The notes under the pieces: model-generated | Database searches by the model: none | Told to the model about the DNA's origin: nothing | What the model saw: only the letters and a program-made list of their open reading frames with translations | Part shown: one piece after another, positions 52,551 to 53,854 of the stretch | How the letters are laid out: every line of letters starts with the position of its first letter | Position numbering within the stretch: the first letter of the stretch is position 1 | Translations under genes and position numbers: made by a program | NCBI GenBank assembly: GCA_951406725.2 | Contig: OX597826.1 | Location: 27,342,001 to 27,406,000, forward strand | From: Octopus vulgaris | Lineage: Eukaryota | Direction: 5' to 3' | DNA: 64,000 nucleotides

Positions 52551-53236
52551 GCATTGCTATATATACACACATAAGTATAACTGGTGCAGGTGAAGGTACG
52601 TGTTAAGAAGTTGGCATTACTATCAGCCCCAGAACGTGTCACCTTGTCCATGTGTCTTCGACCATATCTCTGGGTCGACCAATGGGCAGGCCTATAGAAA
52701 ATTCGAATGGATTTGGTAGACCGAAACTGAAAGAAACCTTTCGAATATACGTACAAATATATGTATATATATATACACACACACACACGTATGTGTATTT
52801 GTGTTTTCTGTTTTCGTGTGTGTCATTATGACTGTGCTTGTCTGACATCGACATTTGACAACCGGTGTTGTGTTTACGTCCCCTTAACTTACCAGCTTGG
52901 AAAAAGTGTCTAATAGATGAAGTACCTGGTTTTACAAAAGATTAGTAGTGTGTTGGATTCTTCAACTAAAATTCTTCAAGACGGAGCTCAAATGACTGCA
53001 ATAAGTGCAAGATAAAGAATATATAATCTTCACAAATGACATCTAAATATTCTTCCTATAGACGACACTTAGTAGTGCTCAAAAGATTAAAACTTAGTCT
53101 CCGATGTCATGACCGGGGATCAGTTCCACAAGCTAAAAGGGGTCTATAAGAGCGATCAAGATGAGGAGGTATATAGGCAATTATGTGGATAAAGAAGTTA
53201 GGTAGATTAAATATGTTAAAGATATGAAATACAATA

Positions 53237-53818
53237 CTGTTTAACAGATGAGGAATTATATACATTATTTACGTTATTTACATTTGACGGATATTTGTCC
53301 TCATCTCATTTGTTGTAAACACAACTTTTCGGTTGATATACCCTCCAGCCTTCATCGGGTGTCCTGGCGAAATTTCGAACCTGGGTTCTCATTCCTAAGG
53401 TATTTTTCGATATTGTTGTTGCTATTGTTATTATTATTATTATTATTATTATTATTATTATTATTTTTATTATAATTATTATTATTATTATTATTATTGT
53501 TGTTGTTGTTGTTCTTCTTCTTCTTCTTCTTCTTCTTCTTCTTCTTCTTCTTCTTCTTATTATTATTATTATTATTATTATTATTATTATTATTATTATT
53601 ATTATTATTATTATTATTATTATTATTATTATAATTATTATTATTATTATTCAGGTCACTGCCGGGAATCAACATCGAAAAATACCTTAGGAATAAAAAC
53701 CCAGGTTCGAAATTTCCCCAAGACACCTGATGAAGGCTGGAAGGTATATCAGCCGAAAGTTGTGCTAACAACAATCAAGATGAGGACAAATATCCGCCAA
53801 GTGTAAATAATGTAAATA
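53237..53818. mobile_element. Family H2 inverted dimer with 13-bp TSD
   Basis: Minus HHR 53318-53363; plus HHR 53722-53766 (GACAC-CTGATGA-A-GGCTG..CAGCC-GAAA-GTT-GTGCT); ATGAAATACAATA at 53224-53236 and 53819-53831. Confidence 0.85.
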
Positions 53819-53854
53819 ATGAAATACAATAGTTTGGGTATGAACTACAAAATA

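Follow-up and report, generated by a model that had tools for sequence, protein, structure and literature searches.

A head-to-head hammerhead insertion within a single target site duplication in Octopus vulgaris, consistent with priming from both strands by a Penelope-like enzyme

Penelope-like elements (PLEs) often insert with an inverted terminal segment, as an initial annotation of the DNA studied here stated and as two papers bear out (PMC3846280, PMC8557442). According to Arkhipova (2013, PMC3846280), PLE insertions carry an inverted, 5'-truncated pLTR, usually head to head, within a target site duplication (TSD) of 8-10 bp; a 31-nt tail is present on one inverted pLTR, and an empty site was verified. 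The tail is often found at one end only and insertion is biased towards microsatellites (Craig 2021, PMC8557442), and the layout is repeated in PMC8969392. The head-to-head layout, TSD included, is already known for PLEs. Paired minimal hammerheads have been described on opposite strands, 100-700 bp apart, some with a U3-A8 core variant (PMC4209133). In vitro, the Poseidon protein of Anolis carolinensis (PAc) cleaves both target strands and extends each of them, with a preference for ATT (Frangieh 2024, PMC11167929). A dimer has been modelled for it, and the tail is bounded by two internal sites, downstream of the hammerhead, at which synthesis starts; the consulted sections of that paper report no start-site difference between strands and describe the later second-strand steps as unvalidated (PMC11167929). 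The schistosome element SM-alpha consists of an RNA polymerase III promoter followed by a hammerhead (PMC6765202, PMC8490949), and animal non-LTR retrozymes, units of 170-400 nt that contain type I hammerheads and do not code for protein, have been proposed to be non-autonomous PLE derivatives (PMC7229834; bioRxiv 10.64898/2026.07.22.740005).

The window analysed here is a 64,000-nt stretch of O. vulgaris DNA (assembly GCA_951406725.2, contig OX597826.1). The focal locus, 53224-53831, is best read as a single head-to-head insertion in which a Penelope-like enzyme, acting in trans on a short, non-coding element with a hammerhead, primed from both nicks; to this reading we give a probability of about 0.6. 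An exact 13-bp duplication, ATGAAATACAATA, occupies 53224-53236 (+) and 53819-53831 (+), and its copies abut the outer ends of two inverted arms of one repeat, family A. The left arm is antisense. It begins with a 26-nt 3' tail (53237-53262, -), which by alignment has no counterpart on the right arm and which continues in public contigs; the arm body (53263-53415, -) contains a decayed hammerhead at about 53318-53363 (-) that failed the motif scan. The arm then passes through an (AAT)n-type microsatellite (53416-53651, -), internal to family A on the sense strand and present at the same position at 27151-27344, into the 19-nt 3' piece of a tRNA-like head (53652-53670, -; alignable with 27345 onwards and 547 onwards), where it is 5'-truncated. 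The right arm (53671-53821, +), delimited by alignment, is sense and 5'-truncated, has a short 3' end, and contains a minimal type I hammerhead motif at 53724-53764 (+) found by our own scan; the majority letters of public contigs restore GAAAC-GUU in this motif. Identity between 53263-53415 and 53670-53821 is 88.9%. The central junction, with 2-3 nt of microhomology, falls at 53670/53671; thus, the microsatellite belongs to the left arm and is no spacer, and the arms are asymmetric about it. Since the last 3 nt of the right arm coincide with the TSD (3 nt of microhomology), the true duplication measures 10-13 bp.

At a second family A locus, AAAAGATCTCTA is duplicated exactly over 12 bp (26995-27006, + and 27589-27600, +), with both copies again abutting the outer arm ends. 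Both exact duplications had been reported in the initial annotation and are confirmed. The left arm (27007-27424, -) is full length and holds the tRNA-like head, (AAT)n, a hammerhead at 27053-27098 and a short 3' end in one unit, while the right arm (27427-27588, +) consists of 22 nt of head, a jump to the hammerhead part and a long 3' end with a 33-nt tail (27556-27588, +) placed by alignment. The inverted stretches 27005-27109 and 27447-27548 agree at 86 of 102 positions, and a 22-nt palindrome lies at the centre of 27007-27588 (palindrome region 27410-27448). In a control of 20,000 pairs of 34-nt zones placed at random with a spacing of 300-700 bp, matches of at least 12 arose in 11 pairs and of at least 13 in 8, so that a TSD match is expected by chance about 5 times in 10,000. 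A six-frame reading of the pre-insertion targets of both TSD loci gave no convincing ORF; about 21 open codons span the focal site, a number too small to be informative. A third family A locus (497-666) has antisense (ATT)n and head up to about 623, followed by a sense 3' end of just 43 nt that includes a tail. It is an eighth head-to-head locus, beyond the seven annotated initially, and has no TSD, the longest match there being 6 nt. This locus looks like a product of classical twin priming in which (AAT)n served as an internal priming site, yet lacks the duplication. Because its head and (ATT)n come without the hammerhead part, a separate head-(AAT)n SINE may also exist.

Hammerheads were sought over the whole window with our own minimal type I descriptor, and shuffled controls were scanned under the same rule. 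With helix I of at least 3 bp, 7 motifs were found against a shuffle mean of 0.15 and maximum of 2 (60 shuffles), and with at least 2 bp, 9 motifs against a mean of 0.37; these counts come from a descriptor that was loosened after a stricter first version had given 2 motifs, and hence was tuned after motifs had been seen. Rfam gives 0 matches in the window at the gathering score, and E-value scans of 53200-56900 and 26950-27650 yielded 67 and 3 sub-threshold matches, none of them to a hammerhead or tRNA. In the motifs, helix III is short and palindromic and A9 is followed by one additional nucleotide, and the U3-A8 variant occurs in families B and D; all three traits are described for PLE hammerheads (PMC4209133). 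Cores with C at position 4 (CCGAUGA/CCGACGA) occur at 53357, 27093, 55588, 19270 and 56111, in families A, E and G; this core is a minority allele in family A and is present in both family E copies.

Ten loci of hammerhead families, representing at least five sequence groups, lie within these 64 kb; eight are inverted and two (19003-19287, 56036-56230) are not. The count excludes, as having no hammerhead, the SINE pairs and two further inverted repeats (12242-12317 and 37498-37739). A head-to-head junction is present at all eight inverted loci, with a tail-to-tail junction in addition at one (56291). The initial annotation placed an antisense copy on the left and a sense copy on the right at seven loci, and hammerhead motifs set the strand in just this way at six; at 56291 the orientation follows from a looser core match (56467-56491), a weak hammerhead that failed the scan. 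Its description of both 3' ends as pointing outward agrees with the head-to-head junction at all seven, but the outer right end of 56291 is a 5' end because of a third, antisense piece there. A single bounding TSD, given there for two loci, can be called at two of the eight inverted loci; five lie in or beside (AT)n, where none is callable, and at 497-666 it is absent.

Family B (2132-2480) lies in (AT)n and comprises an antisense arm (2132-2280), a sense arm (2294-2443) and a right tail (2444-2480); the arms are about 98% identical (155/158) around a 13-nt loop, and the hammerheads within 2132-2443 are degenerate U3-A8 variants. Family C (38476-38674), likewise in (AT)n, has an antisense arm (38540-38579), a hammerhead at 38574-38636 (+) and a sense end at 38674, with 38540-38579 and 38631-38674 identical at 38 of 40 positions. 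Family D (38783-39102), related to B, has a tail at 38783-38807, an antisense arm extending to 39039 that includes a hammerhead (38869-38906), and a sense arm (39040-39102) matching 38808-38870 at 62 of 63 positions. Family E (55291-55799), again in (AT)n, combines an antisense arm (55291-55460, tail 55291-55346) with a sense arm (55462-55799) bearing a hammerhead at 55581-55626; 55347-55460 and 55687-55799 agree at 111 of 113 positions. Since the sense arm begins in tail sequence, the unit is implied to be tandem or circular, with a length of about 363 nt. A solo family E copy with tail, not inverted, lies in a (TTA)n target at 19003-19287 (-). Family F (56291-56854) has three segments, antisense (56291-56672), sense (56673-56789) and antisense (56791-56854); the first contains a 33-nt repeat at 353-nt spacing, and 56304-56420 matches 56673-56789 at 93 of 117 positions. 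The segment 56673-56854 is a tail-to-tail pair (57/64 identical) joined to an older antisense copy, the sole exception to the outward rule. Families E (55291-55799) and F (56291-56676) both start in a repeat of their own 3' end, and the tandem or circular units that this implies, of about 363 and 353 nt, are of animal retrozyme size. Family G (56036-56230, +; motif 56106-56140) is not inverted and has a same-strand 3' fragment at 55856-55944.

Tails are one-sided. In all five pairs whose tail is defined by a second copy (A53, A27, B2, D38 and E55), exactly one arm bears a tail of 26-56 nt and the other stops short, which has a probability of about 0.03 if ends are independent at even odds. The tail is on the left at 53237, 38783 and 55291 and on the right at 27556 and 2444; 56291 was left unscored. 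In family C, 38476-38539 is a possible tail, a sixth case in which no second copy defines it.

The end positions were compared with public data by aligning contigs of 4 runs (of 24 listed; 3 studies, three organism labels), one of which may be the window's own source, to 52960-53415. Between 12,319 and 23,891 contigs aligned per run, mostly on the arm and with unlike flanks, figures that are no copy count. Among the best 24 of 1190 loose-end entries, ends at 53240 (72-113 contigs per run) and 53264 (104-145) have the tail continuing, those at 53261 (81-97) and 53274 (89-119) have unlike AT-rich flanks, and those at 53411 (84-177) and 53414 are followed by (ATT)n. These places are among the best supported in all four runs, and the two short 3' ends of the window lie within the public short-end clusters. 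Two 3' end classes hold family-wide in family A. The filled left junction is spanned by contigs of three runs (X2, X4, X7) over 204 nt with 0-1 differences, and contigs of the fourth (X1) enter it by 7 nt. The claim that each TSD-bounded locus records one insertion event is supported at both, and no empty allele occurs in the four runs among the best 24 of 1190 loose-end entries. No strand-change joint was seen among 15 of the 49 joints in public contigs. The focal target (52960-53236) is itself moderately repeated, with other contigs aligning to it; paralogous empty sites may exist, none being among those listed. Letter changes among the DNA contigs are led by C>T (25-35 places) and G>A (23-27), with A>G (13-18) and T>C (7-16) about half as many. 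These changes look like CpG decay, and a clear editing signature is absent.

The head of family A contains an A box and B box match at 27359-27417, one of 2 in the window; 0 of 100 shuffles reach 2. The other (62192-62245, -) is the head of a different family and lies beside a LINE RT fragment at 62263-63162. ARAGORN called 0 tRNAs, leaving the head at 27359-27417 unrecognised. The full-length arm has no T4 run in its 420 sense nt and three on the antisense strand, and the absence of such a run would be compatible with RNA polymerase III transcription. Each of the three head copies in the window abuts, on the 5' side of the head, a sense piece of family A; at two loci the TSD encloses the head, which was therefore copied together with the rest of the insertion. 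The alternative that a SINE inserted separately into (ATT)n at a later time was rejected, as no (ATT)n lies 5' of the head at any of the three loci. The head is continuous with the body at two of the three window loci; the link between head and hammerhead comes from this window, because public contigs end inside (ATT)n. Family A is likely a tRNA-headed, PLE-driven SINE, judging from the sequence of the focal left arm, which passes through (ATT)n into the tRNA-like head. In the titles, abstract openings and passages covered by a literature search, there is neither a tRNA-headed SINE with PLE tails nor a comparison of the subfamilies of two arms; Repbase, subscription journals or the supplements of PMC8557442 (Octopus PLEs) may contain family A. 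Neither subject appears in the consulted sections of PMC6962438 and PMC10886601. What is probably new is that an element of SINE type with a tRNA-like head would ride Penelope enzymes.

In the preferred reading, RNA polymerase III would transcribe the element from the head through the hammerhead, and a Penelope-like enzyme (RT plus GIY-YIG), acting in trans, would nick the two target strands 10-13 bp apart. Both nicks would prime reverse transcription from the 3' region of the RNA, one probably at a distal internal site, giving the tailed arm, and the other at a proximal site, giving the tailless arm. Each cDNA would then halt at its own 5' point, the two would be joined through 0-3 nt of microhomology, and gap filling would produce the TSD. 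From what is known of target-primed reverse transcription, nicks 10-13 nt apart with both 3' ends priming should give antisense-left and sense-right arms in one TSD. The parts of this route that can be read directly from the DNA are the TSD, the orientation, the one-sided tail, the fixed end classes, and the head, (AAT)n and hammerhead in one unit. Families B-F have the same layout and probably enter (AT)n targets by this route as well. The insertion product is a decaying scar with no shown host function. Neither the ORF list nor a six-frame translation of the loci contains an ORF with RT and GIY-YIG. At 22412-22744, within 22350-22744 (-), a decayed GIY-YIG-like frame resembles the endonuclease end of a PLE (Pfam E 0.05, below the cut-off; Atlas 0.85) and, as a candidate trace of the driving enzyme, is a lead only; the remnant at 22412-22744 has no DNA match to the hammerhead families. 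This frame adjoins an RT-LINE-like fragment (about 23100-23200) and a (CA)n tract.

The initial annotation proposed that both nicked strands prime, which accords with the geometry, the in vitro activity of PAc, the fixed ends and, weakly, the unlikeness of the arms; the same orientation would also result if one PLE insertion were followed by fold-back, with the nascent strand or antisense template snapping back at a palindrome, copying itself into a second arm and joining the other target end. Such self-priming has been published for head-to-head PLE inversions with junction palindromes (PMC3846280). It fits 2132-2443, with its 13-nt loop and arms identical at 155 of 158 positions, and the palindrome at 27410-27448 equally well, and it suits the near-identical arms at 55291 (111/113) and the short ends of families B, D and E, which stop at TAT and could anneal to an (AT)n target. 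However, fold-back predicts arms that are identical at birth, and at 55291 and 53237 each arm has sequence absent from the other, the positions of the short ends are clustered and do not depend on the flank, and both strands are extended in vitro (PMC11167929). The variants of family A bear on the same point. Over 106 columns of its four arms, three informative sites pair left with left and right with right, one pairs crosswise and none pairs within a locus, a pattern reproduced in 0.7-5.4% of star-tree simulations; these sites come from two loci only, and one is at a CpG and one beside an indel. One of them, 53357, is a minority allele family-wide, the majority letter making up 92-97% of depth, and a fourth shared site (GAAAAGTT) was excluded because the focal right arm is ambiguous there. 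Identity of the four arms is 87.6% and 83.5% within loci and 84.5-90.5% across loci. As arms share no private variants within a locus and three across loci, the sequences lean weakly towards two RNA templates and away from fold-back. It may be that both routes are used; as the origin of the focal locus we consider fold-back unlikely, though still a serious contender; priming from both strands is modestly favoured, plausible and not proven.

Two independent insertions, a later copy having landed beside or inside an older one and the enclosing duplication belonging to one of them, would account for family A arms only 84-88% identical within loci and for the three-piece locus 56291, whose middle and third pieces are tail to tail and closer (57/64) than its left and middle (93/117). 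PAc cuts its own pLTR junction (PMC11167929), AT-rich DNA and existing PLE repeats are preferred targets of these elements, and solo copies such as 19003-19287 occur. At both TSD loci, however, the duplication touches both outer 3' ends with no remnant of an older copy between, and neither arm alone is flanked by a duplication; moreover, junctions are head to head in eight cases against one tail to tail, and tails are one-sided in five of five, so that separate insertions appear quite improbable. The inverted ends and flanking duplication are also MITE-like, and the region is microsatellite-rich. Yet arm lengths vary by locus (40-160 nt), the arms differ by 2-20% with a tail on one of them, the TSDs vary in length and sequence (12 vs 13 bp), and the left junction recurs in contigs from three runs, differing at 0-1 positions over 204 nt; MITE-like DNA transposons or assembly artefacts, with incidental hammerheads, are therefore largely refuted and very improbable indeed. 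A bolder form of both-strand priming, which is possible and rather doubtful, takes family A as a very-high-copy tRNA-derived SINE moved by a Penelope enzyme and not by a LINE, with an asymmetric RT dimer holding two different RNAs; the distal site would always be used by one subunit and the proximal site by its partner. If true, this would explain the inverted arm, one-sided tail and TSD in one step and overturn the fold-back model, and it would offer thousands of natural insertions for testing the open PLE mechanism, each a ready hairpin.

The focal insert folds at -220.5 kcal/mol (z -15.8, 20 shuffles), which is to be expected of any inverted repeat of this kind. If transcribed, the hairpins built into these insertions would be a source of dsRNA, and by their predicted folding they are putative substrates for ADAR or RNAi; the host is likely rich in A-to-I editing, and small RNAs from Penelope copies are described in a rotifer (PMC3846280). 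The window is AT-rich (GC 0.29-0.45) and microsatellite-rich, with SINE and LINE remnants and RVT_1 matches at 41027-42310 and 62263-63159. Ordinary SINE inverted pairs (68-85% identity) at 30371-31962, 47592-48496 and 60587-61631 could also form dsRNA and are separate from the hammerhead pairs. At 40741-42313 (-), beside a (TAA)n tract, lies a LINE RT that is broken by a frameshift and has zf-RVT and, downstream, an endonuclease-like frame; it presumably resembles microsatellite-targeting R4/Dong elements. Two GC-richer frames of 165 and 215 aa without a Pfam match (50388-51758, -) are possibly a LINE ORF1. Inverted arms at 37498-37739 and 39284-39322, which start with CAGTAG, are flanked by TA and enclose a microsatellite, are taken to resemble a Tc1/mariner-type MITE, and a 76-bp imperfect palindrome (12242-12317) lies between (AT)n and TTAA.

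In L1 twin priming, both target strands prime and the inversion lies inside one TSD; it inverts the 5' part of one RNA, and the 3' end is not duplicated. Here, in contrast, both arms carry the 3' region, and only 497-666 resembles twin priming. There is a close likeness to endonuclease-bearing PLEs (Penelope/Poseidon, Neptune, Nematis, Naiad), which share the head-to-head arms, one-sided tail and TSD; unlike these, the window elements have no ORF, TSDs of 12-13 bp and tails of 26-56 nt, and family A adds a tRNA-like head and internal (AAT)n. The consulted sections of the PAc paper give no account of the inverted arm and pair no start site with each strand (PMC11167929). For the PLE inverted arm, self-priming was proposed in 2013, and the both-strand extension shown in 2024 leaves it unexplained; thousands of short, subfamily-marked pairs would make one versus two templates directly countable. 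The parts worth following are the tRNA-headed family and the two-template pattern of long and short ends.

As proposed for family A, SM-alpha and Sj-alpha combine a Pol III promoter with a hammerhead, but they form ribozyme-freed tandem repeats, and a PLE tail, inverted arm or PLE partner is not described in the consulted text (PMC6765202). Copies of family A, unlike those of SM-alpha, are dispersed through the genome as single insertions no longer in arrays, with 3' ends about 60-95 nt beyond the point where cleavage is predicted. The units of about 363 and 353 nt implied for families E and F are within non-LTR retrozyme size; unlike retrozymes, the window has no array of two complete units, and copies are inverted pairs or solos. 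Our scan of the window found no two consecutive same-strand hammerheads of one family, E and F amounting to about one unit only. A tRNA head is nowhere mentioned in the consulted part of the retrozyme preprint (bioRxiv 10.64898/2026.07.22.740005). If a SINE with a tRNA-like head does have PLE-type ends, PLEs would join the known partners of SINEs, and SM-alpha-like elements would be linked to retrozymes.
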